DNA of 15,153 bases from Candidatus Bipolaricaulia bacterium (GTDB lineage: Bacteria > Bipolaricaulota > Bipolaricaulia > JBHIAT01), in contig JBHIAT010000082.1 in NCBI GenBank assembly GCA_046758705.1, positions 1 to 15,153 of the forward strand, read 5' to 3'. Shown piece after piece: positions 1,626 to 15,085 of this stretch. The notes beneath the pieces were generated by a model that was given only the letters and a program-made list of their open reading frames with translations, did not search any database and was not told the origin of the DNA. The stretch's first letter is position 1, and every line of letters starts with the position of its first letter. The translations under genes were made by a program, and so were the position numbers.

Positions 1626-1631
1626 TATAAT
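1626..1631 (+). promoter_or_regulatory. Sigma-70-type -10 box for the riboswitch-1 leader
   Basis: Perfect TATAAT 6 nt upstream of GAAGCCC (1638); a similar arrangement recurs at 10849-10854. No clear -35 box. Confidence 0.6.
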
Positions 1632-1653
1632 AGTAGTGAAGCCCAAAGACGCG

Positions 1654-1735
1654 TCCACGACAAGGGCAAACCCACCGAAAGGTGGGGACGCAAAGCCACG
1701 AATCCGTAAGGACAGTCGGGCTGCCGAAGTTGGAA
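1654..1735 (+). ncRNA. c-di-GMP-I (GEMM-I) riboswitch aptamer, copy 1
   Basis: CACGACAAGGGCAAACCCACC-GAAA-GGTGGGGACGCAAAGCC...GGGCTGCCGAA: canonical GGCAAACC, GNRA-capped P2, GGGACGCAAAGCC and RCCG core. The G20 equivalent (1665) and C92 equivalent (1724) are intact. Located in the 5' leader of 1778..2371. Confidence 0.95.
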
Positions 1736-1777
1736 TGAACGGGCTTCCAATGACCTTGAATTAATTGGAGGTGCGTA

Positions 1778-2371
1778 ATGCACATAAATCGGAATCGGAT
1801 GGCCATAACGATCGCCACGGCCTTGGTGCTGGTGATCTCGGCATCCATTGGTGTTTGGGCGGTGACCGGAGGCAACAACGGTGCAGCCGTCAATGGAACG
1901 GTCGGACCCTTGAGTGATGGGACGCCCGTCGTCTCTTGGAGTGCTTATACCTGGGCGCAGATCGCCGTCCACGGCGCGGTTGCCCTAGGGACCATCGATG
2001 ACACGACGGCCTACACCGGCGCCACGCCCAGCGGCGGTGGTGCCTTCGGGAACCTGGAGAGCCTGACTAACAACGTGTTCGTCATCACCAACGACCCCGA
2101 CGGTTGGGTGCTCCAGATCTCGGTGACAGGTACCAGTACGCCTCTGGGCTTCACCGGAGACCTGTTGGGCGACTTCCAGTGGCGGGAGACGCCGATAACC
2201 GCTGGAACTTATGCAGCAGCCACCGGGCTTGATTTACTACCGGCCACGGTAGATACGACTGCCGCAGCTGGCTCCGCGGTCTACGGCTTCGACTACAAGT
2301 ACAATATTGACATCAACGACATCCCGGGCAACTACAGCGTCACCGTCCAGTACACCGTGACCACCAACTAG
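1778..2371 (+). CDS. Secreted single-domain pilin-like protein (SCPU/Csu- or WxL-like Ig fold); candidate major fibre subunit
   Basis: RBS GGAGG at 1767-1771. Signal peptide (..SIGVWA). Rich in Gly/Thr/Ala, beta-strand pattern, internal GWVLQIS and C-terminal IPGNYSVTVQYTVTTN (PGxYxxTvxxT terminal strand typical of such pilin-like domains). The coding call is firm; the family assignment is an inference. Confidence 0.7.
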   Translation: MHINRNRMAITIATALVLVISASIGVWAVTGGNNGAAVNGTVGPLSDGTPVVSWSAYTWAQIAVHGAVALGTIDDTTAYTGATPSGGGAFGNLESLTNNVFVITNDPDGWVLQISVTGTSTPLGFTGDLLGDFQWRETPITAGTYAAATGLDLLPATVDTTAAAGSAVYGFDYKYNIDINDIPGNYSVTVQYTVTTN

Positions 2372-2415
2372 ACTCGCTTGTAACTTGTAAAGATGCAGAA
2401 GCTGTAGAGGCTAGA

Positions 2416-2451
2416 GGCGACGGCGCGTCCTCCCCCCGACGTGCCGTCGTC
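2416..2451 (+). promoter_or_regulatory. Strong intercistronic hairpin (mRNA stabiliser or partial terminator) after the first gene of the cluster
   Basis: GGCGACGGCGCGTC (2416-2429) pairs with GACGTGCCGTCGTC (2438-2451): 14-bp stem with two G-U pairs and loop CTCCCCCC. No immediate U-tract. Confidence 0.65.
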
Positions 2452-2467
2452 CGGTTTAAGGTGAACG

Positions 2468-3439
2468 ATGAAGGTGTCAAGGTCTGTTTCGGTCGCAGTT
2501 CTATTGGTGTTCTTGATTCTCGTTTCATTCTCCGTTACGGTTAAGGCCCCCCAGCAATGCAGCCCTGGAGGCGGTAATCAGCGGGTCTGCATCACCGTAC
2601 ACGCCAATCTGAACCTGGGCCTCATCGATGAGACGATCTACAGCGGGGCCACACCGGGTGGCGGCGGCAGCTTCGGGGACCTGGAGAGTCTGAGCAACAC
2701 CGTCAACGTCAAAAGCAATCCCACATGGAGTCTGGAGATTGAGGCGACGGCCACCAGTGCACCTGCGGGCTTCACCGGGAACCTGTTGGCCGACTTCCAG
2801 TGGCGCGGCGGCGATCAGGTGGCCTACACCTCGTTCCCCGCGCTCAACACCATGATGACCGTCGTCGCTTCCGACACAGGAAACAACGTTAATGTCGGTA
2901 TGGATTACCGATACAGCGTGGACATCGATGACATCCCGGGAAGCTACAGCATCACGCTTCAGTATACCGCATCCAACCAGCTCGGGTATACGATCTCGGA
3001 CACGGTGACCCTCAGTTGGGACACCTACACCTGGGCACAGATCGCCATCCACGGCGCGATCAGCTTAGGGATTATCGATGAGACGATCTACAGCGGGGCC
3101 ACACCGGGTGGCGGCGGCAGTTTTCAAGCGCTGGAGAGCACCGCAAACAACGTGTTCATCATCACCAACGACCCCGACGGCTGGACACTGCAGATCGAGA
3201 TGACGGCTAAGACGGAACCGGTGGGCTTCACCGGAGACCTGTTGGCCGACTTCCAGTGGCGCGGCGGCGACCAGGCGATCTACACCTCGTTCGCCGCGCT
3301 CAGCACTCCGATGACGGTGGCGACCACCACCAGTCAGGGATCTCAAGTCTACAATATAGATTATCGGTATACCGGGGACACCGATGACATCCCGGGCAAC
3401 TACAGCGACACGCTTCAATTCACAGTGACGACCGGTTGA
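2468..3439 (+). CDS. Secreted protein with two tandem copies of the 1778..2371 domain; candidate minor/tip subunit
   Basis: Signal peptide and an N-terminal Cys pair (QQCSPGGGNQRVC). Two repeats of LGxIDETIYSGATPGGGGSF..LES...GFTGxLLADFQWRGGDQ...DDIPGxYS.TLQxT. DNA 2624-2670 is identical to 3074-3120. Confidence 0.75.
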   Translation: MKVSRSVSVAVLLVFLILVSFSVTVKAPQQCSPGGGNQRVCITVHANLNLGLIDETIYSGATPGGGGSFGDLESLSNTVNVKSNPTWSLEIEATATSAPAGFTGNLLADFQWRGGDQVAYTSFPALNTMMTVVASDTGNNVNVGMDYRYSVDIDDIPGSYSITLQYTASNQLGYTISDTVTLSWDTYTWAQIAIHGAISLGIIDETIYSGATPGGGGSFQALESTANNVFIITNDPDGWTLQIEMTAKTEPVGFTGDLLADFQWRGGDQAIYTSFAALSTPMTVATTTSQGSQVYNIDYRYTGDTDDIPGNYSDTLQFTVTTG

Positions 3440-3464
3440 TCCCTAGGAAATAAGGAGGACGCTG

Positions 3465-4271
3465 ATGGGCAAACGTCGCAGGTTTCTGTTGATCGCGGCA
3501 CTCTTTTCAGGACTTATCTGCTATTCGTATTCGTTCACCGCCTACCCGATCCGGGTCTCGAACATGGTCTTCGAGCTGAGTCTGGCGCCGGGGGAGAGCG
3601 GGACGTTCTCGTTTGAGGTGCTCAACAACGAGACGCGGACGACCCGGATCACCGTCTATCTGGTCGATTGGCGCATCCATCCTGACGGCTCCCAGGTGTT
3701 CCTCGATCCGGGGATCTTGCCCCGTTCCAACACCGCATGGATCGTTGTCTCACCCTCCGAGTTCGGATTGAATCCTGGGGAGACCCAGGAGGTCCGGTTC
3801 ACGATCAGCGTCCCGGAGAACGTAGAGGGAGGAACCTATTGGGGGATGATCTTCGTCGAGGGCTCCCCAATCGTGACCGAGAGTGGGGGAATCTCCATCC
3901 TCACCGTGCAACGGTTCGGGATCAAGGTCTATGAGACGACCCCGGAGGCGACGCTGCGCGACGGTCGGGTGACCGGCATGAGCCTGATCAGCTTGGACCC
4001 GCTTAAGGTGAAGGTCGCGTTCGAGAACACCGGCAACGCGAGCCTACGACCGGAGGGTCGAGTGGAGGTGATGAACGAGCAAGGTGAGCTGGTCAAGCGG
4101 CTGGAGATCGGCGCGTTCTCGGTGCTTCCCGGGGCCAACCGGGAGGTTGAGGTCGTTGACGAGGGCGGCAAGCGCCTGGGGCCGGGACGCTATGTCGTCT
4201 TGGGTATAATCGACTTCGGAGGGGAGAATCTGGTCGCCGGGCGGTTGCTGTTCCAGATCACTGAGAACTGA
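3465..4271 (+). CDS. Exported two-Ig-domain protein resembling pilus chaperones (PapD/EcpB-like) or DUF916-type WxL-interacting proteins
   Basis: RBS AAGGAGG at 3452-3458; signal peptide. Motifs LAPGESGTFSFEVLN, WIVVSPSEFGLNPGETQEVRFTISVP..GTYWGMIFVE, VAFENTGNASLRPEGRVEV and SVLPGANREV. No C-terminal membrane anchor. Confidence 0.7.
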   Translation: MGKRRRFLLIAALFSGLICYSYSFTAYPIRVSNMVFELSLAPGESGTFSFEVLNNETRTTRITVYLVDWRIHPDGSQVFLDPGILPRSNTAWIVVSPSEFGLNPGETQEVRFTISVPENVEGGTYWGMIFVEGSPIVTESGGISILTVQRFGIKVYETTPEATLRDGRVTGMSLISLDPLKVKVAFENTGNASLRPEGRVEVMNEQGELVKRLEIGAFSVLPGANREVEVVDEGGKRLGPGRYVVLGIIDFGGENLVAGRLLFQITEN

Positions 4272-4324
4272 GAACGGCTGAACCCTTTCCCCGACCTGTC
4301 AGCGGCTATGATATAAAGCTGATC

Positions 4325-7300
4325 TTGAGGTCAAGAGATTTCCGTACTGTTCAGCCGATTCTAGTGAGGATCCTGCCTGTTCTCCTCCCTTTTCTATTTC
4401 TGCTCACCTATAGCGCATCGGTCGGGCTAGCTCAGTCCTCCCTTGATGTCACCTCCGCCCCTAAGGTCGGATCGTTGGGCGACTTCATCACCCACACGTT
4501 CCGACTGACCCATGCGGGCGGAGCTCAAGAGATTTATGACCTGGCACTGGAACTTCCCGAGGACTGGGAGTCCCTCGACGGGTTGGACCCGGTGACGCTG
4601 GACCCCGGCGAGGCAGACACGATCTTCATCACCGTGTTCGTCCCGTTCGCTGTGGTTGCCGGGGATTACGAGATAACGCTCACGGCGACCGCCCGAGTCA
4701 CGGCGGTTCAAGTGACGGCCTCCGCTTCGGTCAAGGTGCTTCAGGTCGCCGAGGTGATGATTCAAGCGCCGCCGGGCGCCCAGGCGCTGCCGGGGAGTCA
4801 GTTCAGCTACACGTTCGCGATCGTCAACCGCGGCAACGCTCCGGATGTGTTCGAGATCTCTGCCGACTCGGCCCATGATTGGATCGTCGAGATCTCAGAA
4901 GACCAAATCGAGCTGGTGCCCGGCGAGCGGGGAACGTTCGATATAACCCTCCAGATCCCATTGTTCGCGTCGGAGGGCCGGGATCGGCTCACCGTCGAGG
5001 TCATGTCTACCGTCTCCTCAGAGGTCTCCGATCGGGTCACGCTGTTCACCACCGTCCTGCCGCCCTCGCCTCAGGGAGTCGGGAGGAGGCTGTTCGTCGA
5101 GGTGCCGGCCGAGATCGGGTTGATGGCAGGCGGCTCGCCAGCGGGCGTGAGCACCTCCCAGTTGAAACTGTTCGCCGAGGGGGGGATCGGGGCGGACCGC
5201 CAGTTCTCTCTGGAGTCCACCCTCGGTGGGCTGACGACCCCGACGCCAACGCTTAACGCACTCATCTTTAACTATGAGACGGAGCGGTATCGGCTCAGAC
5301 TGGGGAACATCTCGACCGAGTTCGCCGAGTTTGCCAACCTGTCGGGGAGGGGGGCACAACTCGATCTGGGCGGCGAGCGGCTGGGTGTCACGGTGCTCGG
5401 CCTGGAGGTGACTGGGGGGCAACAGATCGGTGCCGCGGCCGGTCTGACCGGCGCCCTCGGCCCGATCGATGCCAGCCTCTCCTATATCGGACGGTTCGAT
5501 CAGCCGCTGAATCTTCAGACAGATCTGCTCGACCTCTCACTTGCCTACCCACTGAGTGACACCTGGACAATCGGTGCGGAGGGAGCGATCAGCCGCTCGG
5601 CTTCAGGACAGGACGTTGCCTGGTGGCTCGGTTCAGTGTTTCAAGGGGAGAACGCGTTCCTCAGCGCCGACTATGTGAAGATCGGCACAGAGTTCGTCGG
5701 TGAGCGGAGCGACGAGGCCGGCTTCCGGGTCTCTCACCAGCTGTCATTCCGCAAGCTCTCTCTGTCTCTGAGGTTCCTCATCGAACAACTCAGCGATAAC
5801 GTGGCCGGGGATCCCACCCAGCCGACGGTCACGACGACCCGCCTCCTGTCGGACTCGACCTTCTCCTCACCGGGGTTTCCCGCGCTCGGTTTCGGAACGA
5901 ACTTCGAGACGCGGCGCAGCCGCGGCCCCGCGCCGCGCACCGATGAGGAGGAGGTGGCACTCAAACTGAGCCTTGCCGGACCCCTGGGGCCGTTCTCCTA
6001 CCGCCTCTCCGGCAATTGGGGGGAGATCCGGGATCGGATCGCGGCGACTCGGTTCAGTTCGGTCAGTTACGACGTCAGCCTGAGACTGGCCCGGGGCCGC
6101 TTCTCGGGCGAGGTGGGCTATGTCGATCGTACCGTCTCAAACGCCATAACCAGCCAAATCGAGGACCGATCGATCGAGGAGCGCCTATTGCTGACCTACG
6201 AGCTGAGTCCATCTCTGTCGGCCTCCCTGAGCGCCGATCGGGATGAGCTGGGGGGAACCACCACCCTCACTCCAAAATTCACTTACCGGCTCGGTGGGGA
6301 GACAGAGATGGCAGTTGGCGGTGAGTTGGGATTCGTCGATGGACAGGGGGATGTCACTTGGACCGCTCAACTGGAGTACAATCGTGGGTTCTCTCTTCCA
6401 TTGCCCTGGATCAAGACGAAGGGGCAGGTCGAGGGTTACGTGTTCATCGATGAGAACGGGAACGGCCGTCCGGACGACGGGGAGGCTGGCCTCAGCCGGC
6501 TGGTGCTGCGCACCGGCCATACGGGCGTGCTCACCGACGAGACGGGGTTGTTTCGCTATCCCCCGCTGGAACCGGGGGAGTATGAGCTGGTCCTCGATAA
6601 CCCGCCAGCGGACCTCGTCCCGTCCATCCAACTTCCTCAACGGTTTGAACTCGCCCGCGGCGAGGTCAAGCGGATCGATATCCCGATGCAACGGGCCGCC
6701 TATATCGACGGCCGGGTCTTCGATGATCAAAACCGGGATGGTCAATTGGACCCCGGGGAACCAGGCGTGACCGGAGTCCGGGTGGCTCTGATGACAGCCG
6801 AGGGGGAGCCGATTCGCGAGGGGTTCACCGGGCCCACCGGGTGGTTTGCGTTCACCGGCCTGCTTCCCGGAGGATACCGGCTCCGGGTCGATGAGACCTG
6901 GTTCCCCCCCGGATACGAACCGACCACGCCTCAGGACCGCGAATTGACCCTGGAGCCTGAATCCCATGCCCAGGTTCAGTTCGGGGCCGCTGCCAAGGAG
7001 CGAGGGATCATCTTCACCCTGGAGAACACTCCGCCGACCGCATTATTCGTTCTGACGCCCGATCGCCCCACTATCCTGGATGAGATCCGGTTTGCCGACC
7101 GCTCGACCGACCCTGACGGGGAGATCACCCGCTGGCTTTGGGACTTCGGCGACGGGGGCGAGAGTGATGAGCCAAATCCGATCCATCGCTACCGGGAGAC
7201 GGGAACCTACCAGGTACGGCTCACCGTCACAGATGACCTCGGCTCGACCGACACGGCGGTCATCGAGCTACAGGTCGTCAATGCCCTCCCGCAGGCAGCG

Positions 7301-9274
7301 TTCGATCACGACCCCGACACGCCGACGGCCGAGGAGTTAGTTCGGTTCGTCGACCGCTCCCAGGACCCCGACGGAGAGATCATAAGCTGGCTTTGGGACT
7401 TCGGCGATGGGGCGACCGCTCAGATCCGAACCCCCCAACACACCTACCCGCGTCCGGGTCGGTACCGGGTGACCCTGATCGTTACCGATGACGATCGGGG
7501 CCAAAATACCGTCTCCCGGGAGATCGAGGTACTTCAACGTCCCAACCGCTCCCCGGTCGCCGACTTCTCCTTCGCGCCGCAACGGCCGCTCACCGGCCAG
7601 ATCCTGCAGTTCTTCGACCGTTCGACCGACCCCGATGGGAACATCACCACTTGGCGCTGGGACTTCGGGGATGGCCGTTTCTCGACCGAGCGAAACCCGA
7701 TCCATCGCTATGAGCAGGCCGGGACTTATCGGGTGAGTCTCCAGGTCGTCGACGACGATGGGGCGAGGAATACGATCCTGCAGGAGATCCACGTCGAGGC
7801 CCCCCGCGGAGCGATCGCGGTGGAGGTCTATCGGGACCACAATGGCAATAGGATCCGAGAGCCGGAGGAGGAGCTGGTCGAGGAGGCGATTGAGATCCGG
7901 GTCAACGGGAGAGAACAGACGATCGTCGGTCGAGAGGTGCTGGCCGACTTGACGGTGGGACGCTATACCCTGGAGGTCATCGACAGGAGCCTGCCCACCG
8001 GTCTCGTTTCGACCGGTCCTGCGACCGTTGTAATCGAATTGAGGCAGGGCGAGCAGGAGACGATCCCCTTCGGGCTAGCGCGCGGTGGGATGGTTGAGGT
8101 TCGCGTCTTGGAGCGCCGATTGCTCTCCCCGCCTGTTGAGCTGCTGAGCGGTGTGTTCGCGTTCCCCGGCACGTTCGTCGCCGCCCCACCGGTCAGCGAG
8201 TTGGAGATCCTCCCCGACAGCCTGAAACGCGAACTCCGGGCCCCGACCAGCCGATTGGCGTTCGCGACCATGATCCTCAACAGCTTCCAGATAAGGCAGC
8301 AGCTCACCCGGACGATGATCGGCTTCCATCTGAGTCAGCCGGCAGAGGTGACCGCCGAGATTCTGGATCAACATGGTGAAGTGGTCAGAACACTGCTGAA
8401 GGAGGAGTCGCTGGGGCATGGGCTGCACTATCGGGTCTGGGACGGACGGGCTCAGACGGGGAGAGTCGTTCCAGAGGGAACCTCCCGTTATCGGGTTTCG
8501 GCCGAAGGCGTGGATGGGGATGGACGCTCATCGCTGCTGGAGGGCGAATTGATCGTCCAATCCTGGGTGCTGCTCCTGGAGGCAGACCGAACCGGGGTGT
8601 TCGAGCGGACGTTTGAATTGGGATTGGTCGTCGGCGTCGCTCCCGGGGAGTTCGCCGGCGATCGAGCCATCACCGCCTGGGAGGCCAAGACGATCCTGGC
8701 CCGGGCGTTGAATCGGGAAAAATTCCTCCCGATCCGGATCGGCTGGATGCTGCAGGAGATCCTGGAACCGATCGAGGGGAAAGAGTCTGAGGAGACGATC
8801 ACCGGGGAACAGGCGGCCCGGATCATCGGAACCTATCTGAATCAGACCCCGCCGATCAAACCGATCAAGATGACCGGCGTACTGAATCGGGGTTTCGGGA
8901 TCGAGGTCGACGAAAAACCTGTCCCATCCGATCACGACGGTCAGTTCCGAGCGCTGATCGACGCCCGGGATATCGACGCTCTGGATGGTGAAATCCCATT
9001 GGTCTTTGTGACCGAGGAACCGGACGATCGCCTCCAGGTCATCCGGGAGGGGGTCGGCGGCTTGATGGTGGCAGTCGGCGATGTGGGGCAGCTCACCGAC
9101 GAGACAGGACGAGCGAGCTTCACCGGGGTGGGGCCGGGCCGACATAGGGTCAGGCTGTTTCCTGAATCGCTGGCGGGGAGGTTCAAGTTGGTATCCGACG
9201 GGATTTTTGATATGATGGTGGAAGAAGGGGAACGAACGGTTGTGACGTTTGAGGTGGTCGTGATCGGAATGTAG
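4325..9274 (+). CDS. Giant multidomain exported protein: 2x Ig-like, predicted outer-membrane beta-barrel, SdrD-B-like repeats, 3x PKD, FlgD-Ig-like and SLH-like motifs; candidate usher-like platform
   Basis: 1649-codon ORF; the start is uncertain (TTG 4325 or GTG 4364). Signal peptide, then Ig domains (VTLDPGEA; IVNRGNAPDVF..LVPGE). Amphipathic strand region at ~5100-6410. SdrD-B-like motifs GYVFIDENGNGRPDDGE, GRVFDDQNRDGQLDPGE and VYRDHNGNRIREPEE. Three PKD repeats F.DRS.DPDG.I..W.WDFGDG....PxHxY..G.Y.V.L.V.DD at ~7020-7800. FlgD-like GFHLSQPAEVTAEILD..VVRTL..VWDGR at ~8310-8505. SLH-like GLVVGVAPGEFAGDRAITAWEAKTILARAL at ~8620-8710. Confidence 0.8.
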   Translation: MRSRDFRTVQPILVRILPVLLPFLFLLTYSASVGLAQSSLDVTSAPKVGSLGDFITHTFRLTHAGGAQEIYDLALELPEDWESLDGLDPVTLDPGEADTIFITVFVPFAVVAGDYEITLTATARVTAVQVTASASVKVLQVAEVMIQAPPGAQALPGSQFSYTFAIVNRGNAPDVFEISADSAHDWIVEISEDQIELVPGERGTFDITLQIPLFASEGRDRLTVEVMSTVSSEVSDRVTLFTTVLPPSPQGVGRRLFVEVPAEIGLMAGGSPAGVSTSQLKLFAEGGIGADRQFSLESTLGGLTTPTPTLNALIFNYETERYRLRLGNISTEFAEFANLSGRGAQLDLGGERLGVTVLGLEVTGGQQIGAAAGLTGALGPIDASLSYIGRFDQPLNLQTDLLDLSLAYPLSDTWTIGAEGAISRSASGQDVAWWLGSVFQGENAFLSADYVKIGTEFVGERSDEAGFRVSHQLSFRKLSLSLRFLIEQLSDNVAGDPTQPTVTTTRLLSDSTFSSPGFPALGFGTNFETRRSRGPAPRTDEEEVALKLSLAGPLGPFSYRLSGNWGEIRDRIAATRFSSVSYDVSLRLARGRFSGEVGYVDRTVSNAITSQIEDRSIEERLLLTYELSPSLSASLSADRDELGGTTTLTPKFTYRLGGETEMAVGGELGFVDGQGDVTWTAQLEYNRGFSLPLPWIKTKGQVEGYVFIDENGNGRPDDGEAGLSRLVLRTGHTGVLTDETGLFRYPPLEPGEYELVLDNPPADLVPSIQLPQRFELARGEVKRIDIPMQRAAYIDGRVFDDQNRDGQLDPGEPGVTGVRVALMTAEGEPIREGFTGPTGWFAFTGLLPGGYRLRVDETWFPPGYEPTTPQDRELTLEPESHAQVQFGAAAKERGIIFTLENTPPTALFVLTPDRPTILDEIRFADRSTDPDGEITRWLWDFGDGGESDEPNPIHRYRETGTYQVRLTVTDDLGSTDTAVIELQVVNALPQAAFDHDPDTPTAEELVRFVDRSQDPDGEIISWLWDFGDGATAQIRTPQHTYPRPGRYRVTLIVTDDDRGQNTVSREIEVLQRPNRSPVADFSFAPQRPLTGQILQFFDRSTDPDGNITTWRWDFGDGRFSTERNPIHRYEQAGTYRVSLQVVDDDGARNTILQEIHVEAPRGAIAVEVYRDHNGNRIREPEEELVEEAIEIRVNGREQTIVGREVLADLTVGRYTLEVIDRSLPTGLVSTGPATVVIELRQGEQETIPFGLARGGMVEVRVLERRLLSPPVELLSGVFAFPGTFVAAPPVSELEILPDSLKRELRAPTSRLAFATMILNSFQIRQQLTRTMIGFHLSQPAEVTAEILDQHGEVVRTLLKEESLGHGLHYRVWDGRAQTGRVVPEGTSRYRVSAEGVDGDGRSSLLEGELIVQSWVLLLEADRTGVFERTFELGLVVGVAPGEFAGDRAITAWEAKTILARALNREKFLPIRIGWMLQEILEPIEGKESEETITGEQAARIIGTYLNQTPPIKPIKMTGVLNRGFGIEVDEKPVPSDHDGQFRALIDARDIDALDGEIPLVFVTEEPDDRLQVIREGVGGLMVAVGDVGQLTDETGRASFTGVGPGRHRVRLFPESLAGRFKLVSDGIFDMMVEEGERTVVTFEVVVIGM

Positions 9275-9324
9275 CGGTTTTTTTCGGGGGATTTCGAATA
9301 ATTCTTAAGTAAAAGGAGGTTGCA

Positions 9325-10743
9325 GTGTTTAAAACTAGAAATATTTTCATTTTTATCCTCATCCTGACATTTTCGGTTTTAATCCTCCTGTTCTATTCCA
9401 CAACCATCGCGTTGGGTTCCGAGCTCCAGCTGTCTGCGTCGGTTGTCCAGGCGAACTCCCTGTTCCGGATGACGGTGGTCTCCACCAGGGTAGAGCAGAT
9501 CACCGTGACCCTGCCCAACGGGTTCTTGTTCCGGGCTACGCCCAAGCTGGGCAAGGCGGAGGGAAATCGTTACTGGGTCCTATCGATCGACGACGAGCGG
9601 TTCGAATTCACGGTGATGAGCGGCGCGCCCCCCGGACGTTTCGTCATCGGGGCGATCTTCGACGTCATCGGTGGAGAGCCAGTTGAAGTCAAGCAGGAGA
9701 TCCAAGTGGAGGGTCCGGTGGGTGCCGCTGTCGAAGTCGAAGCTGAGGCTGAGGCTGAGGTTCCGGTGTCAGGACCGAGGGTGGCGGTCACAGAGACGCT
9801 GATCCGACTCAGGAGCAGCGGATCGGTCGAAGTCGTGCTCTCCGAGGCTCCGCAGGGGCTTCGGGCGTTCGACTTCACCGTCTTCATTCGGTCGGAATCG
9901 AATAGAGCTGTGGTCGGGCTTGCCGGCCTTGAACCCGGCGTAATTGACGGACAATTCTTCGAACAGGTGAGACGTGGCCCGACGTTCGCTACGTTTAGGG
10001 GGGTGGACTTCAGCGATCGGGTCCGTGCCGGTGCCCAGGGGGTGCGGCTCGCCAAGCTCATTCTGAATGGAGTCTTCGAGGGAACGGCGACAGTGGCCGT
10101 AACCGTCAACATCATGGTGGACGATCTCGGCGCATCGATAACGTCTGCAGGAGTGCCAGGGCAGGTCCAAGTGGTCCAGATCCTGCCGATCGGTGATCAT
10201 GACATCCCGCCCCAGGACCTCGACGAGGACGGGCGGTTTGAGGACATCGATGGCGACGGCCAGTTGACCAGACGCGATGCGATCAGCTTTGCCTTCAACC
10301 TCGGTGATCCTGAGATCAAGGTGAGTCCGAAAGCCTTCGACTTTGATGGGAACGGACAGGTGGAGTTCAGCGATGCGATCACACTGGCGACGGCTACGCT
10401 GGGAGCATCGAGGGTAGAGGAGCCACCGGTCACCGTGATGGCGGTGCGCTTCTTCGCCCACCCCGATCACACGCGTATCGTCTATGACCTCAGCAACGAG
10501 CCGGACCCGGAGATCATGGCGGTTTCGGACCCGCCGCGCATCGTCGTAGCGCTTGGCAACGCCCAACTTGCCGGAACCCTCGATTCCCGCGACGTCCCGG
10601 TGGGTAGCCCTGAGGTCACACGGGTCCGCTATCAGCTTCAGGAGACCGGGGTTCGCCTGATCGCTGAGTTGAACGGCGAACACGGTTACCGGTTGTTCAC
10701 CCTGACCGATCCCTATCGAATCGTCATCGACGTAGGGATATAA
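9325..10743 (+). CDS. Exported protein with cohesin-like, dockerin-like (paired Ca-binding loops) and C-terminal AMIN domains
   Basis: RBS AGGAGGT at 9314-9320, GTG start, signal peptide. Cohesin-like VVLSEAPQGLRAFDFTV...GAQGVRLAKLIL...IMVDDLG at ~9820-10180. Dockerin-like PQDLDEDGRFEDIDGDGQLTRRDA...AFDFDGNGQVEFSDAITLA at ~10207-10390. AMIN-like VRFFAHPDHTRIVYDL..DPPRIVV...RLFTLTDPYRIVIDV at ~10430-10740. Confidence 0.78.
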   Translation: MFKTRNIFIFILILTFSVLILLFYSTTIALGSELQLSASVVQANSLFRMTVVSTRVEQITVTLPNGFLFRATPKLGKAEGNRYWVLSIDDERFEFTVMSGAPPGRFVIGAIFDVIGGEPVEVKQEIQVEGPVGAAVEVEAEAEAEVPVSGPRVAVTETLIRLRSSGSVEVVLSEAPQGLRAFDFTVFIRSESNRAVVGLAGLEPGVIDGQFFEQVRRGPTFATFRGVDFSDRVRAGAQGVRLAKLILNGVFEGTATVAVTVNIMVDDLGASITSAGVPGQVQVVQILPIGDHDIPPQDLDEDGRFEDIDGDGQLTRRDAISFAFNLGDPEIKVSPKAFDFDGNGQVEFSDAITLATATLGASRVEEPPVTVMAVRFFAHPDHTRIVYDLSNEPDPEIMAVSDPPRIVVALGNAQLAGTLDSRDVPVGSPEVTRVRYQLQETGVRLIAELNGEHGYRLFTLTDPYRIVIDVGI

Positions 10744-10878: not shown

Positions 10879-10957
10879 TCCACGATAAAGGCAAACCCAT
10901 CGAAAGGTGGGGACGCAAAGCCACGGATCCGAAAGGACAGCCGAGCTTGAGTTGGGA
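10879..10957 (+). ncRNA. c-di-GMP-I (GEMM-I) riboswitch aptamer, copy 2, with a degenerate 3' end
   Basis: CACGATAAAGGCAAACCCATC-GAAA-GGTGGGGACGCAAAGCCACGGATCC-GAAA-GGACAGCCGAGCT. The G20 equivalent (10890) is intact, but the conserved GCCG after P3 is missing (GAGCTTGAG versus GGGCTGCCGAAG in copies 1 and 3). Confidence 0.85.
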
Positions 10958-10994: not shown

Positions 10995-13301
10995 ATGCAC
11001 AGGTTGAGCGAAACACACTGGGCGGACGACCGGGGATCGATGATGATCGTCATGTTCTTCGTCTTGTTGGTCGTCACCCTACTGGGCGTCGGCTACTTCA
11101 GCATCTCCCTCAACAGCCAACGGTACAGCTCTCTGATCCAAGACAGCGAACGGTCCCTGTACATTGCCAAGGCCGGCATCCACCGCGCCGAACAGTACAT
11201 CGTCAACCGCCTGGGCGGCTTTGAGGCGTTCCAGATAGCTGCCCCGAGCTGGATCCCCGTCGAATATCAGACGAACGGCTACCTGCTGGCCAACGAGACG
11301 GACATTACCAACGCTCAGATACTCAGCGCCGATGTGTTCATCATCACGGATACCTCCGGCATCTCCCCGGCATTCCTCATTCTGTCCCGGGGCCAGCATG
11401 AGGGGACGGAACGGCTGTTGATGGAGCGATTCGAGTTCGGTGGCGGGATCAGCTCGTTGGCCCGCTACGCGTTGTTCCAAAACTCGAACAGCATGTCAGA
11501 CAAGTTTGGCGGTTACGATATCTGGTTCATCGGGGGTGATTTGATCGACGGCCCACTTCACACCAACACCCAGGACCCAGACGATATGCTCAAGCTCATA
11601 ATGATGTATAGTAAGAATGAGTTGAAAGAGCACCCCCAGTTCCTCGCCAAGGTGACGACCACCAACAACCGGCTGAAGATCCGACGTTGCCAATCGCCAT
11701 TGTCCTGCACGAGCGAATACTTCCGGTTCCAGGCAAACCCCGACACCTATGGCGACCCGTTGTTCGAAGCCGTCCATCCGGGCTGGCAGGAGAACATCTT
11801 CCAGGGCGGGATCGTCTACGCTGCCGAGCCCCTGCAGATGATCTACGACACCCAGACCGGCAGTGACTTCGACGCGATGCATCGCGAAGCAGTCCGCCAT
11901 GGCACCGTCCTGCCCGACTATCGGCTGCTCAAGACCTATGTCCAAACCACGGGTGGAACCGCCGCCACCGATCCGGACACCGGAGATTACCTCATCCCCG
12001 AACTCACCTACTGGGCGTACACCGGCACCCAGACCGCCCCATTCTGGGGCGTCGATCCATACGACCTGGGCCAGAGCTCAGACGTGCCGACCGATCTGGT
12101 GGCTGACTACCAGTACGCTGGGGTTTCTGAAGCGGCTCAGATCTGGTATGACAACCCGGCCAATCCCCAGTCGAAGGTGGTTCTGGAGAAGCGCAAGTTT
12201 GAGTATCCGTTCCACTGGCAGGCGGACTACTACGTACGGGTGACCGATGACCAATGGATGCACGAGCTGCGCGACTGGGACGAGTTGACCGGGGAGATGA
12301 CCGACATCGGGTTCCAGCAGCAGGCGGGAACCGGCGATACCTCCACCCCTAACTCCACGCTGTGGATGAACCCGGCGACCTACCAGTGCGTGGATGAGTG
12401 CGATGGACCTGAAGATCTGGTCTTGGTCAGCCAGACGGAGTACATCGAGATCGAGGAGATTCAGCAGTGGAAGATCTACATCAACGACAACCAGTTCGAG
12501 TACTACTACACGACCCAAACCCCGAACTATTTCGGTCCCAAGAACTTCAACATCTACGGCAACTGCAGAGGCTCGATCATCGACTACGGCGAGCCGAACG
12601 TCTGCAACGACGGCGGCGACCTCGATCCCAATGACTCCACCATCTGGAACCAGGTCCAGACTGCGACCACCTCGATCTCGGGGATGAATCCGATCGCCCC
12701 CGGCCAGAACATCTGGGGACTGCTCAGCTCGATCCAGTCGACCAACAACACCCTGTACAGTACAGGGAACCTGTATGTCGCCGGCAGTTACGGGACGTCG
12801 GCCTCCATCATCAGCCGGGAGAATATCTACTTCTACGACGACATCACCGCCAAGTATCTGGACGATGGGGGTTACGACATCAACACGTTCGACCCGAACG
12901 ACCACCCGAACTTCAACTACTTCCTGGGGTTGATCGCGCTCAAGGATGTGGTCATCAGTCAGTACTTTAATGATCCTGATAAGGACATCGACCTGCACGC
13001 GGCGATCCTGGCAACCGAGGGGAGCTTCTGGTACAGCCTGTTCAGCCAGGACCCGGCCTCGGCTCATGACCAGATCAACCTGTACGGTGGGCTGGCCCAG
13101 TATGCCCGTGGGCCGGTGGGGCTGTCTAACGGCAAGGGGTTCCTCAAGAACTACGTCTACGACGAGCGGTTTGCTGGGTTGGTCAATGAGAATTTCAAGA
13201 ACCACCCGCCGGTCTACCCGCTGGTCAAATCGGGCGATCCCACCAACCCCGAGATCAAGCCGTCGATCAGCGTGTTGCTGGTGAGTATTCAGGAGCTATA
13301 G
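10995..13301 (+). CDS. PilX/GspK-type minor-pilin-like protein with a large DUF4900-like C-terminal region
   Basis: RBS GGAGG at 10985-10989 supports ATG 10995. Class III signal DDRG|SMMIVMFFVLLVVTLLGVG without Glu+5, followed by SLYIAKAGIHRAEQYI (PilX-N-like). Motifs WFIGGDLIDGPLHTN, LGLIALKDVVI, INLYGGLAQ..RGPVG..GFLKNYVYDERF..PPVYP. Confidence 0.8.
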   Translation: MHRLSETHWADDRGSMMIVMFFVLLVVTLLGVGYFSISLNSQRYSSLIQDSERSLYIAKAGIHRAEQYIVNRLGGFEAFQIAAPSWIPVEYQTNGYLLANETDITNAQILSADVFIITDTSGISPAFLILSRGQHEGTERLLMERFEFGGGISSLARYALFQNSNSMSDKFGGYDIWFIGGDLIDGPLHTNTQDPDDMLKLIMMYSKNELKEHPQFLAKVTTTNNRLKIRRCQSPLSCTSEYFRFQANPDTYGDPLFEAVHPGWQENIFQGGIVYAAEPLQMIYDTQTGSDFDAMHREAVRHGTVLPDYRLLKTYVQTTGGTAATDPDTGDYLIPELTYWAYTGTQTAPFWGVDPYDLGQSSDVPTDLVADYQYAGVSEAAQIWYDNPANPQSKVVLEKRKFEYPFHWQADYYVRVTDDQWMHELRDWDELTGEMTDIGFQQQAGTGDTSTPNSTLWMNPATYQCVDECDGPEDLVLVSQTEYIEIEEIQQWKIYINDNQFEYYYTTQTPNYFGPKNFNIYGNCRGSIIDYGEPNVCNDGGDLDPNDSTIWNQVQTATTSISGMNPIAPGQNIWGLLSSIQSTNNTLYSTGNLYVAGSYGTSASIISRENIYFYDDITAKYLDDGGYDINTFDPNDHPNFNYFLGLIALKDVVISQYFNDPDKDIDLHAAILATEGSFWYSLFSQDPASAHDQINLYGGLAQYARGPVGLSNGKGFLKNYVYDERFAGLVNENFKNHPPVYPLVKSGDPTNPEIKPSISVLLVSIQEL

Positions 13302-13843: not shown

Positions 13844-13923
13844 GTCTACGACAAAGGCAAACCCATCGAAAGATGGGGACGCAAAGCCGCGAATCCGAAA
13901 GGACGGTCGGGCTGCCGAAGGAC
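13844..13923 (+). ncRNA. c-di-GMP-I (GEMM-I) riboswitch aptamer, copy 3
   Basis: TACGACAAAGGCAAACCCATC-GAAA-GATGGGGACGCAAAGCCGCGAATCC-GAAA-GGACGGTCGGGCTGCCGAAG. The G20 (13856) and C92 (13915) equivalents are intact. The P2 pair that is C-G in copy 1 is U-A here (compensatory change). Confidence 0.95.
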
Positions 13924-13924
13924 C

Positions 13925-15085
13925 ATGCAAAGCTTCAAGCTTGGACTCAAGCTCACCCAGGTCTGGATAGGCCGTACAATTCACTTTTGCAGACCCTTAT
14001 ATAAGGGCAGGACGGGCAACCGGGGCTCGGCGATGGTCGTGGTCGTCATCTTCTCTGTCCTGTTGGTGGGCACCCTGCTGGGCATCGGCTATCTGATCAC
14101 CTCTCTCAAAAGCGAGCGGTACAGCTCCCTGACCGAGGACAGGGAAAAGTCCCTGTTCATCGCCAAGGCTGGCATCCACCGTGCCGAACAGTACATCATC
14201 AACCGAAGGGGTAACTTCGCTTCGGCGAAGGTCAACGCTCCAAGCTGGGTCCCCGCTGACTACCAGTTCTCCGGCTACCTGCTGGCGAACGAGGGCGTCT
14301 CCGACGATCAGCGGCTCAGTGCTGAGGTGTTCATCATCGAGTCGAACCCGAGCACCTACCACATCCTCTCCCAAGGCAAGTTCCAGAAGACACAGCGCAT
14401 ACTCCTTGAGACCGTCAACTTGTCCGGCGGCTCGGTCGTCGATCAGTACTTCTCGACCGCCGTCGTCGCCGATGCGGATGGGGGAATCCTAACCAGCGAA
14501 AATACCATCATCATTGCACCGGAAGGGGATAGCCTACTGTTTTCGGGGCTTCCCCCGATCATCGAGCCCAACACCTACGATGAGGATCACAGCGGCGAGA
14601 TCCTCAGCTCAGAAATCGTCCTCTCCGATATCAATCCCCACAGGCCGAAGACCTACTTCTACGATGGGATCGACTTAAGCAGCAACCAGGAGGTCGTCGT
14701 CGACGGAGACGTCCAACTGTACGTGAATGGGGATGTAGCCATCTCAGGAGGAGCACAGATCGGTCGCTGCATAGATGCGGTGAACATCTCCGGCCTCGGT
14801 AACTGTTCACTGGTCATCTACGTCCTGGGGTCGGGGAACGTGACGATTGGGGGGACTTCCGAGGTGCGTGCGGCGATTTATGCGCCACAGAGCACGCTCG
14901 TCGCCTCGAGCGGAACACCTGAGATCTACGGGGCGTTGGTCGGGTTCGCCGTTGATCTGCGGGGGAGTGTGATGGTGGTCTACGATTCTGATCTGACGGC
15001 CAAGTTGGCCGATTTAGAGGAGACCGGAGTCGAGACGATCCAGGTTGACCCCGAGGTGCAGTTTACCGGGTGGGAAGAGATCTGA
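13925..15085 (+). CDS. PilX-type minor-pilin-like protein with a short beta-solenoid-like C-terminal domain (DUF7305-like)
   Basis: First ATG after the aptamer (13925; start moderately certain). GNRG|SAMVVVVIFSVLLVGTLLGIG followed by SLFIAKAGIHRAEQYI, homologous to the N-terminus of 10995..13301. C-terminal motifs VVVDGDVQLYVNGDVAISGG, NVTIGGTSEVRAAIYAPQS, IYGALVG..VDLRGS..VVYD. Confidence 0.78.
   Translation: MQSFKLGLKLTQVWIGRTIHFCRPLYKGRTGNRGSAMVVVVIFSVLLVGTLLGIGYLITSLKSERYSSLTEDREKSLFIAKAGIHRAEQYIINRRGNFASAKVNAPSWVPADYQFSGYLLANEGVSDDQRLSAEVFIIESNPSTYHILSQGKFQKTQRILLETVNLSGGSVVDQYFSTAVVADADGGILTSENTIIIAPEGDSLLFSGLPPIIEPNTYDEDHSGEILSSEIVLSDINPHRPKTYFYDGIDLSSNQEVVVDGDVQLYVNGDVAISGGAQIGRCIDAVNISGLGNCSLVIYVLGSGNVTIGGTSEVRAAIYAPQSTLVASSGTPEIYGALVGFAVDLRGSVMVVYDSDLTAKLADLEETGVETIQVDPEVQFTGWEEI

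Follow-up and report, generated by a model that had tools for sequence, protein, structure and literature searches.

What could a bacterium of the phylum Bipolaricaulota build with five genes for exported proteins that stand behind a riboswitch for cyclic diguanylate (c-di-GMP)? The genes lie on contig JBHIAT010000082.1 of Candidatus Bipolaricaulia bacterium (GenBank assembly GCA_046758705.1), which was analysed over its full length of 15,153 nucleotides (nt), read on the forward strand, and is called the window below. They encode two β-sandwich proteins (subunits 1 and 2), a chaperone-like protein with two immunoglobulin-like (Ig) domains, a giant protein with a predicted β-barrel and an accessory protein with an AMIN domain. 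A sequence-only reading of the window had proposed a distant, possibly undescribed surface-fibre assembly system, and both the barrel prediction and the co-occurrence of homologous genes in other genomes support this proposal. We consider it probable that the product of the five genes is a hitherto undescribed type of pilus, built by donor-strand exchange.

The host is a diderm. Published work describes Bipolaricaulota as atypical diderms without lipopolysaccharide genes and with a toga-like outer membrane, and the host genome, a metagenome-assembled genome of 3.7 Mb (94% complete, 4.7% estimated contamination), encodes an Omp85/BamA homologue (111.8 bits). The available text on the first Bipolaricaulota isolate describes ‘a few pili’ at the toga ends by cryo-electron microscopy (bioRxiv 10.1101/2025.11.21.689855), and the report on the first closed Bipolaricaulota/Acetothermia genome states that fimbria, pilus and adhesin genes are missing from it (PMC6092417). 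In the literature that we searched, which for one broad search comprised the best 15 of 2,641 papers, we found no link of Bipolaricaulota or Acetothermia to c-di-GMP riboswitches, chaperone-usher systems or pilins.

Architecture of the Gene Cluster

The layout given by the sequence-only reading holds in all its parts. The c-di-GMP-I aptamer that it placed ahead of the cluster belongs to the c-di-GMP-I-GGC family, a member of Rfam clan CL00126, and matches the model over its full length (Table 1). The five co-oriented genes are open reading frames (ORFs) on the plus strand, and the signal peptides ascribed to their products correspond to one to four lysine or arginine residues followed by a hydrophobic stretch (maximum 12-residue Kyte-Doolittle value 2.7-3.4), a pattern that we call signal-peptide-like. 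Gene 2, read as a tandem paralogue of gene 1, encodes two copies of the protein 1 domain with 44% and 58% identity. The region 5100-6410 of the giant gene, read as barrel-like, is modelled by AlphaFold2 as 26 strands, and the supposed wall-binding protein at the end carries an AMIN domain (Pfam E 1.2e-11). NCBIfam has no match for the first three proteins. For the giant protein it gives only matches below cut-off, the best being choice-of-anchor T, whose 46.4 bits fall short of the required 70.

Between the two subunit genes lies a GC-rich hairpin. The intergenic stretch that contains it (2372-2467) folds with -39.9 kcal/mol (z -3.46), and the hairpin is possibly a stoichiometry or mRNA-stability element. 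A simple scan for promoters and terminators gave counts no higher than in shuffled sequence.

Table 1. Features of the window and their coordinates (aa, amino acids; bp, base pairs).
Feature	Position	Strand	Details
c-di-GMP-I-GGC aptamer	1656-1729	+	Rfam RF03167; 75.7 bits (gathering score 59); E 8.9e-17; model positions 1-80 of 80
Expression platform	1730-1777	+	9-bp hairpin 1743-1751/1764-1772 burying the Shine-Dalgarno sequence GGAGGT (1767-1772)
ORF 1, subunit 1	1778-2371	+	197 aa
Intergenic hairpin between subunit 1 and subunit 2 genes	2416-2451	+	14 bp, GC-rich, no U-tract
ORF 2, subunit 2	2468-3439	+	323 aa
ORF 3, chaperone-like protein	3465-4271	+	268 aa
ORF 4, giant barrel protein	4325-9274	+	1649 aa; alternative GTG start at 4364
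Predicted 26-strand β-barrel	5093-6415 (aa 257-697)	+	AlphaFold2; no inserted plug domain
ORF 5, accessory AMIN protein	9325-10743	+	472 aa
c-di-GMP-I aptamer	10880-10953		Rfam RF01051; 59.1 bits, above gathering score
c-di-GMP-I aptamer	13847-13920		Rfam RF03167; 71.0 bits, above gathering score

An Usher-like Protein With a Predicted 26-Strand Barrel

According to Pfam, the giant protein begins with Ig domains of the NEW3/FixG_C/Ig_VWA7 type, continues with an unannotated gap and ends with two SdrD_B/CarboxypepD_reg domains, three PKD domains, one FlgD_ig domain and an unannotated tail. The AlphaFold2 model of residues 30-800, based on a 78-sequence alignment (predicted local distance difference test, pLDDT, 95.7; predicted template modelling score, pTM, 0.76), places in this part two Ig domains, 26 long antiparallel strands (model residues 228-668) and a β-sandwich. 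A 17-sequence profile of the gap (aa 258-702) retrieves 145 representative clusters from 1.84 billion proteins at E ≤ 1e-3, with 86 of them at ≤ 1e-10 and 50 at ≤ 1e-30, and nearly all matches lie at about residues 250-690 of proteins of 900-1000 aa. We scanned 45 of these clusters, picked across the E-value range and with a length above 800 aa, with Pfam. Nearly all have N-terminal Ig matches and all have C-terminal β-sandwich matches, while the centre is unannotated except for weak Porin_4 matches in three. Their conserved core consists of two N-terminal Ig domains, the barrel and two C-terminal β-sandwiches. It parallels the usher layout of an N-terminal domain (NTD), a barrel and two C-terminal domains (CTD1 and CTD2).

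Comparison of the predicted structure with PapC, a check suggested together with the sequence-only reading, leads to ushers in one search and to outer-membrane barrels at large in the other. In Foldseek, the FimD usher 3rfz_B comes first (1.9e-12, 675 columns); the top usher matches range from 1.9e-12 to 1e-10 over 630-690 columns, and many FimD/PapC entries lie between 1e-12 and 1e-8. Between these entries stand Ig-array proteins whose matches fall on the N-terminal domains; BtuB appears at 3.5e-8, and the template modelling (TM) scores are low (0.3-0.45). VIA-align matches the barrel to solved outer-membrane barrels with Z 17-22, namely MtrB with Z 22.2 over 403 aligned residues, the PapC pore with 18.7, PapC with 18.2, FimD with 17.5 and 17.4, and TonB-dependent receptors and OccK porins with about 16-17.5. 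The barrel alone cannot tell ushers from other large barrels, and therefore the likeness to ushers lies in the whole architecture.

The prominence of MtrB brings up a different product. The giant protein itself might be an outer-membrane-anchored adhesin, comparable to an inverse autotransporter or an MtrB sheath, with its C-terminal SdrD_B, PKD and FlgD_ig domains threading its own barrel or lying beyond it, and the small and two-Ig proteins might be non-polymerising accessory or lectin-like partners. In PapC and FimD ushers the barrel has 24 strands, and its sequence is interrupted by a plug domain. The modelled barrel has short loops only and lacks a plug, and MtrB (PDB 6R2Q) shares its strand number, being a 26-strand barrel that forms a sheath around another protein. 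In the window copy, some 950 residues with adhesin-type domains also follow the barrel, and the dockerins of 28 of 29 chaperone-like proteins and of neighbour proteins suggest that several proteins dock into one complex. However, in most scanned relatives just two small β-sandwiches come after the barrel, in some cases with one PKD domain, too short a stretch for a stalk, and with an even number of strands, as predicted, both ends of the barrel would face the same side of the membrane. Furthermore, the subunits resemble fibre subunits best, and the sole PDB sequence relative of the two-Ig protein belongs to a pilus chaperone family (see below). On balance, an adhesin of this kind appears unlikely.

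We regard it as highly improbable that the cluster is a nutrient-uptake module without a fibre, in which a large outer-membrane channel with carbohydrate-binding-type Ig domains would work with periplasmic binding proteins. Such a module would fit the NEW3/NPCBM_assoc, CarboxypepD_reg and PKD domains of the giant protein, which are common in glycan-processing and TonB-dependent systems, as well as the similarity of the barrel to TonB-dependent receptors and porins (Z about 17, weak Porin_4 matches) and the gene for a substrate-binding protein just upstream (711-1583). Yet the operon has no transporter, TonB-box or enzyme gene, and its riboswitch precedes small β-sandwich genes, often with one aptamer per gene, as would suit a structural protein that is produced in large amounts. 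The proteins also resemble fibre subunits and a pilus chaperone in the fold comparisons, which speaks against an uptake module as well.

A Two-Ig Protein Distantly Related to WxL-Interacting Proteins

The third gene had been read as encoding a two-Ig chaperone-like protein, and the subunits as resembling WxL/DUF916 systems. A resemblance of the cluster to such systems is borne out by a sequence match of the chaperone-like protein. A profile of 30 chaperone-like sequences, dockerin left out, retrieves two sequences from the PDB, both of EfmWxLIP1 (E ~0.003, precisely 0.0033), an Enterococcus faecium protein of the enterococcal WxL-pilus chaperone family, with an alignment that runs through both Ig domains in the same order (query 30-241, chain 23-245). 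The same profile finds no PapD-type chaperone at E ≤ 10, and the single window sequence finds no PDB match at this threshold. The window protein ends right after its second Ig domain and all its Pfam matches are sub-threshold. Among the 29 aligned family members, WxLIP_PGBD (DUF916, PF06030) is seen in 11, again sub-threshold (best E 6e-4). Judged by sequence, the protein would thus be a distant relative of the WxL-interacting protein (WxLIP; DUF916/DUF3324, PF06030/PF11797) and not a member by Pfam threshold. A C-terminal membrane anchor was not detected (maximum 18-residue hydropathy 1.17 in the last 60 aa). Dockerin_1 is present in all 28 relatives, and the window copy alone is without it.

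The ESM Atlas model of the protein (pLDDT 0.85) has neighbours with TM-scores of 0.78-0.84 over about 240 residues in proteins of about 265 aa from Deinococcota, Vulcanimicrobiota, Gemmatimonadota, Bacteroidota and Planctomycetota. Automatic naming assigns several of the neighbour clusters to PapD-type pilus chaperones, and in a few clusters a minority of members has PapD_N or WxLIP matches, which we take as a lead only. A profile search for the chaperone-like family yields 73 proteins, 69 of them without a Pfam domain, with labels that include Gemmatimonadaceae and Pyrinomonadaceae. Moreover, the chaperone-like and barrel proteins have an Ig domain in common: the first one of the former and the second N-terminal one of the latter are homologues (hhalign probability 96.3%, E 1.5e-9, 76 columns), which points to a shared machine.

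In one family of relatives, a conserved small gene (about 107-136 aa, MQLTIYYTKDDLYLIK...) stands directly before the chaperone-like gene (L010:4245-4568, L011:8024-8434, L012:7500-7841, where L numbers denote loci of relatives). Two of these loci have no subunit gene nearby.

Subunit Proteins With a Candidate Donor Strand

Subunit 1 comprises a signal-peptide-like N-terminus, a flexible stretch, the amphipathic segment TPVVSWSAY (aa 49-57) and a β-sandwich. AlphaFold2 (pLDDT 76.6, pTM 0.60) models aa 25-58 as disordered and aa 59-197 as the sandwich, and the amphipathic segment is a candidate donor strand. An alignment of the subunit family shows the signal peptide, the amphipathic segment and a C-terminal motif G.Y....YT.T, 2-3 residues from the end, to be conserved. 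In subunit 2, two subunit domains follow each other; the first has no N-terminal amphipathic segment, and the linker before the second carries a copy of it, DTVTLSWDTY. This layout would fit a fibre-tip subunit, and we would place subunit 2 at the tip because its first domain lacks the N-terminal strand.

Many relatives have, in place of the double-subunit fusion of the window, a protein of about 330 aa. The gene before the chaperone-like gene encodes an unannotated N-terminal domain and a C-terminal subunit domain in loci such as L009:7663-8646, L014:7257-8243 and L040:6930-7973 and similar ones, and this two-domain layout would fit a tip adhesin.

The family is unannotated. Neither Pfam nor NCBIfam has a model that recognises the subunit proteins, and a word-indexed protein search with subunit 1 returned only the two proteins of the window. 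An iterative search of the relatives' loci and the host genome found the family in nearly every locus and two further paralogues in the host genome. With the resulting 39-sequence profile, 25 proteins were retrieved from a set of 5.8 billion; all are unnamed or ‘hypothetical’, none has a Pfam domain, and the organism names among them are only Acetithermum and Bipolaricaulota. In the PDB, the single sequence of subunit 1 has no match at E ≤ 10, and the family profile finds only TLP-2 (E 0.13) and TLP-1 (E 0.77), aligned over the region of the N-terminal strand.

Comparison of the predicted structure with CsuA/B and EcpA, advised alongside the sequence-only reading, ranks donor-strand fibre subunits best, with Z below 8. 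Foldseek lists such fibres first, with TasA at 4.9e-4, TLP-1a/b at about 1e-3 and CsuA/B at 4e-3, followed by PapA, FimG and CS17 (9.6e-3), CFA/I (1.7e-2) and archaeal bundling pili (1.8e-2). A search of 48,161 chains that is independent of Foldseek gives TLP-1b as the best match (Z 7.5, root-mean-square deviation 3.2, 132 residues) and then CsuE, TasA (Z 6.7), FimA/G, cannulae, CfaB, Csu, EcpA and CupE. The likeness to the TasA/camelysin family is one of fold, with no Pfam match to it in the 39 subunits. The consistent enrichment of fibre subunits, not any single score, weakly suggests that the modelled subunit shares their fold.

TasA at the head of the Foldseek list could also point to a donor-strand matrix fibre that forms without a true chaperone/usher cycle, by self-assembly as in TasA or cannulae. 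The 268-aa protein would then be a nucleator or anchor and the barrel an export pore or attachment point. Archaeal fibres that do without a chaperone are among the matches too, and three loci have chaperone-like and subunit genes with no barrel gene within 6-8 kb. Against this, folded subunits in a diderm must cross the outer membrane, and 21 of 29 loci have the barrel gene behind the chaperone-like one, with five of the other eight ending within 1.5 kb. The Ig homology described above likewise points to a machine that the chaperone-like and barrel proteins share. We therefore hold self-assembly to be quite unlikely.

Conservation of the Gene Order

Within the phylum the barrel is widespread. 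Its profile is matched (E ≤ 1e-10) in 126 of 184 phylum genomes, among them 59 of 71 high-quality genomes, and in 41 of 54 genera; the chaperone-like gene was found in 35 of the 41 genomes searched, the host included. For gene order we compared 31 distinct loci of relatives (duplicates L015, L017, L018 and L023 removed), 29 of which have a full chaperone-like gene. The loci were fetched through that gene, so that only its neighbours count as a test, and related genomes are not independent. A subunit gene adjoins the chaperone-like gene in 23 of the 29 loci, the barrel gene lies directly downstream in 21, and both neighbours are present in 16. The genes of the cluster therefore co-occur in other genomes, and gene order and riboswitch are conserved across Bipolaricaulota.

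A search for conserved synteny, also proposed with the sequence-only reading, reaches further. A distant metagenome contig (L048), fetched through the barrel homologue P0094 (E 5e-20 to the profile), has the same gene order. A 335-aa protein with a subunit domain (E 1.3e-5) and a 174-aa protein with a similar C-terminal motif are followed by a 270-aa chaperone-like protein (E 2.9e-33) and then the barrel protein. No riboswitch was found on this contig, which means that riboswitch control is not universal to the gene set.

Riboswitch Aptamers Before Subunit Genes

In the window and the relatives' loci together there are 42 c-di-GMP-I aptamers, and 34 of them stand directly before subunit-family genes, that is, with the aptamer end between 10 nt inside and 145 nt ahead of the subunit domain. 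Seen from the genes, 34 of 50 subunit-family genes are preceded by such an aptamer. Those without one are mostly the third of a run and encode the proteins of about 330 aa, in which an additional N-terminal domain precedes the subunit domain. The riboswitch would couple the production of the putative shaft subunit to c-di-GMP, and this coupling probably extends to the whole operon.

Two types of expression platform follow the aptamers of subunit genes, as in the relatives' loci L011:7367-7456, L016:2026-2110 and L009:7001-7083. In one type, the start codon lies 4-6 nt past the aptamer and the ribosome site overlaps the 3′ strand of the aptamer. In the other, which the window has, a hairpin of anti-Shine-Dalgarno and Shine-Dalgarno sequence (CCUCCAAG...CUUGGAGG) after the aptamer sequesters the Shine-Dalgarno sequence. 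Both types can share one operon. The Shine-Dalgarno sequence of the window sits 5 nt ahead of the ATG at 1778 and is paired (P unpaired ≤ 0.003) in the free, the aptamer-enforced and the P1-blocked fold ensemble. With the same pairing in all three constraint states, the folds point to neither an ON nor an OFF switch.

The host genome has 27 c-di-GMP-I aptamers above gathering score, several of them in tandem (contigs C52, C55, C23, C81 and C149). The ORFs behind them are reported for clear cases only, as a first-ORF assignment miscalled several small ORFs; some encode small secreted proteins of about 146 aa (contigs C14 and C23). In the window itself, the two aptamers downstream of the cluster stand before genes for large surface proteins, both hydrophobic and pilin-like at the N-terminus, one at 10995-13301 with a weak DUF4900 match and the other at 13925-15085 with DUF7305 (E 8.5e-15). 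The open frame 3-425, with which the contig begins at its 5′ side, encodes the C-terminus of a further paralogue, and paralogues on contigs C52 and C68 likewise stand behind aptamers. They look like minor-pilin or tip proteins of the PilX type under riboswitch control. Upstream of the first riboswitch, the gene at 711-1583 encodes a periplasmic binding protein (Peripla_BP_2, E 3.9e-21) and is probably unrelated to the cluster. With its 3.7 Mb, the host genome is larger than nearly all other genomes of the phylum that were searched (mostly 1-2.9 Mb; one of 4.1 Mb).

A Dockerin-like Module and a Possible Tether to the Wall

The fifth protein combines a signal/anchor segment, a module at aa ~160-290 that it shares with other proteins, a dockerin/EF-hand-like module at aa ~297-360 and the C-terminal AMIN domain. 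The dockerin/EF-hand-like module is weak by Pfam (Dockerin_1 E 0.015; calmodulin matches) and can be aligned with the dockerins that the chaperone-like proteins of relatives carry. The window thus has its dockerin-like module on the AMIN protein, encoded last in the operon, and not on the chaperone-like protein. The middle module also occurs in genes between the chaperone-like and barrel genes of two relatives. A cohesin identity was considered for this module and dropped, as neither the fifth protein nor the relatives gave a cohesin Pfam match at E ≤ 1. With its AMIN domain, the fifth protein would tether the machine to the wall.

A Model of Assembly and Its Weak Points

Taken as a donor-strand pilus, the cluster could work as follows. 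Both subunit proteins would be exported by Sec and held in the periplasm by the soluble WxLIP-like two-Ig protein, which would cap their groove as a fold-complementing chaperone. It would deliver them to the N-terminal Ig domains of the barrel protein, where donor-strand exchange would take place and the polymerised subunits would be pushed out through the predicted 26-strand outer-membrane barrel. The two N-terminal Ig domains and the C-terminal β-sandwich domains of the barrel protein would take the roles of the periplasmic domains of an usher. Subunit 2 would sit at the fibre tip and subunit 1 would form the shaft, while the AMIN/dockerin-like protein would tie the machine to peptidoglycan.

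Several results speak against such a machine. At the level of sequence, none of the 39 subunits matches the WxL, SCPU, Fimbrial or TasA models at E ≤ 0.1, PapD_N (PF00345) is weak and sub-threshold in just three of 29 chaperone-like members (best E 0.00099), PF00577 Usher is found in none of the 45 barrel homologues (E ≤ 0.001) and the PDB contains no sequence that the barrel profile matches at E ≤ 10. At the level of structure, the fold scores of the subunit are middling (Z < 8, TM 0.3-0.5) and can reflect a common Ig-like arrangement. The barrel departs from the 24 strands of ushers and from their inserted plug domain, is closest to MtrB by Z, with ushers (17.4-18.7) tied with TonB-dependent receptors and porins, and is followed in the window by more residues than an usher needs. 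As regards gene order, six of the 29 loci have no adjacent subunit gene, two of them with less than 1 kb of upstream sequence, and three loci with room for it (L033, L034 and L037) show no barrel gene and have a subunit gene after the chaperone-like gene. Finally, the thermodynamic folds of the leader bury the Shine-Dalgarno sequence with or without the enforced aptamer and so predict no switch.

Relation to Known Pili and Barrels

The cluster would work like a chaperone-usher or a WxL pilus, yet its proteins match the sequence models of neither. The WxL pilus of Enterococcus faecalis (elrABCDE) is described, in the available text of its report, as a donor-strand pilus with the WxL pilins ElrC and ElrD and the DUF916/DUF3324 protein ElrE as chaperone; according to this report of October 2026, such chaperone-pilin systems occur only in Bacillota (bioRxiv 10.64898/2026.10.17.759780). 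Both operons have small β-sandwich subunits and a larger subunit beside a two-domain Ig chaperone, and among the named ESM Atlas clusters, the one closest to the subunit is 60% WxL (score 0.94), again a lead only. In contrast to the WxL pilus, the host here has two membranes, as its Omp85 homologue shows, the chaperone-like protein has no C-terminal membrane helix and carries a dockerin instead in the relatives, and the WxL Pfam model (PF13731) matches none of the subunits. The operon of the window, unlike that of the WxL pilus, also contains an outer-membrane barrel gene and is under c-di-GMP riboswitch control. No LP.[TSA]G motif occurs in the five cluster proteins; the genome was not searched for a sortase.

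With archaic and alternate chaperone-usher pili such as Csu, CupE and CFA/I, the cluster shares the order of subunit genes, chaperone gene and gene for an outer-membrane barrel protein. The barrel is likewise flanked by periplasmic β-sandwich domains, FimD and PapC lead its Foldseek matches, and CsuA/B, CsuE and CfaB rank high among the folds that match the subunit. The differences lie in sequence and detail. The sequence-only reading had recognised no standard PapC or CsuA/B sequence, and in agreement with this we find no PF00577 usher (in the giant protein at E ≤ 0.01), no PapD-family chaperone (PF00345/PF02753) above threshold and no SCPU or Fimbrial match of the subunits. The model has 26 strands without a plug, and two N-terminal Ig domains take the place of one NTD. 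MtrB, the closest match of the barrel by Z, has no flanking Ig and β-sandwich domains; no sequence similarity to it was found, and no cytochrome genes are present.

The best structural match of the subunit model is TLP-1b (TLP-1a/b, PDB 9IKJ/9IKK). According to the text available, TLP-1 forms donor-strand-exchanged fibrils that were imaged from pond water by CryoSeek, with producer and assembly genes unknown and a protein from Flavobacteriales as the nearest relative named (PMC11494351). TLP-1 protomers are larger (about 236 aa), and in the tubule protomer n+4 acts as the donor (PMC11494351); moreover, the sequence similarity to the subunit family is not significant on its own. Taken together, the comparisons make the cluster likely to be an undescribed two-membrane cousin of Gram-positive WxL pili and Gram-negative chaperone-usher pili.

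Implications

A more far-reaching picture, which we think possible but rather doubtful, is that of an ancient third branch of chaperone-guided donor-strand pilus assembly, defined by a soluble WxLIP-like chaperone and a plug-less 26-strand ‘usher’. It would be near-universal in Bipolaricaulota and present also in Gemmatimonadota, Acidobacteriota and Deinococcota, and it would link the evolution of WxL and chaperone-usher pili. The branch would make the toga-end pili, would be the kind of machine that builds TLP-1 fibrils and would have each pilin gene gated by its own riboswitch.

Resting on predictions, the cluster is nevertheless a concrete candidate for the pili at the toga ends of the first isolate, and offers a genetic lead for the orphan environmental TLP-1 fibrils. 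It also suggests a direct, RNA-level control of individual pilin genes by c-di-GMP, often with one aptamer per gene. If the proposed pilus is real, a WxLIP-like chaperone beside an outer-membrane barrel in a deep-branching diderm would widen the Bacillota-only picture of such chaperones, and an evolutionary link between Gram-positive and Gram-negative donor-strand pili would become testable.

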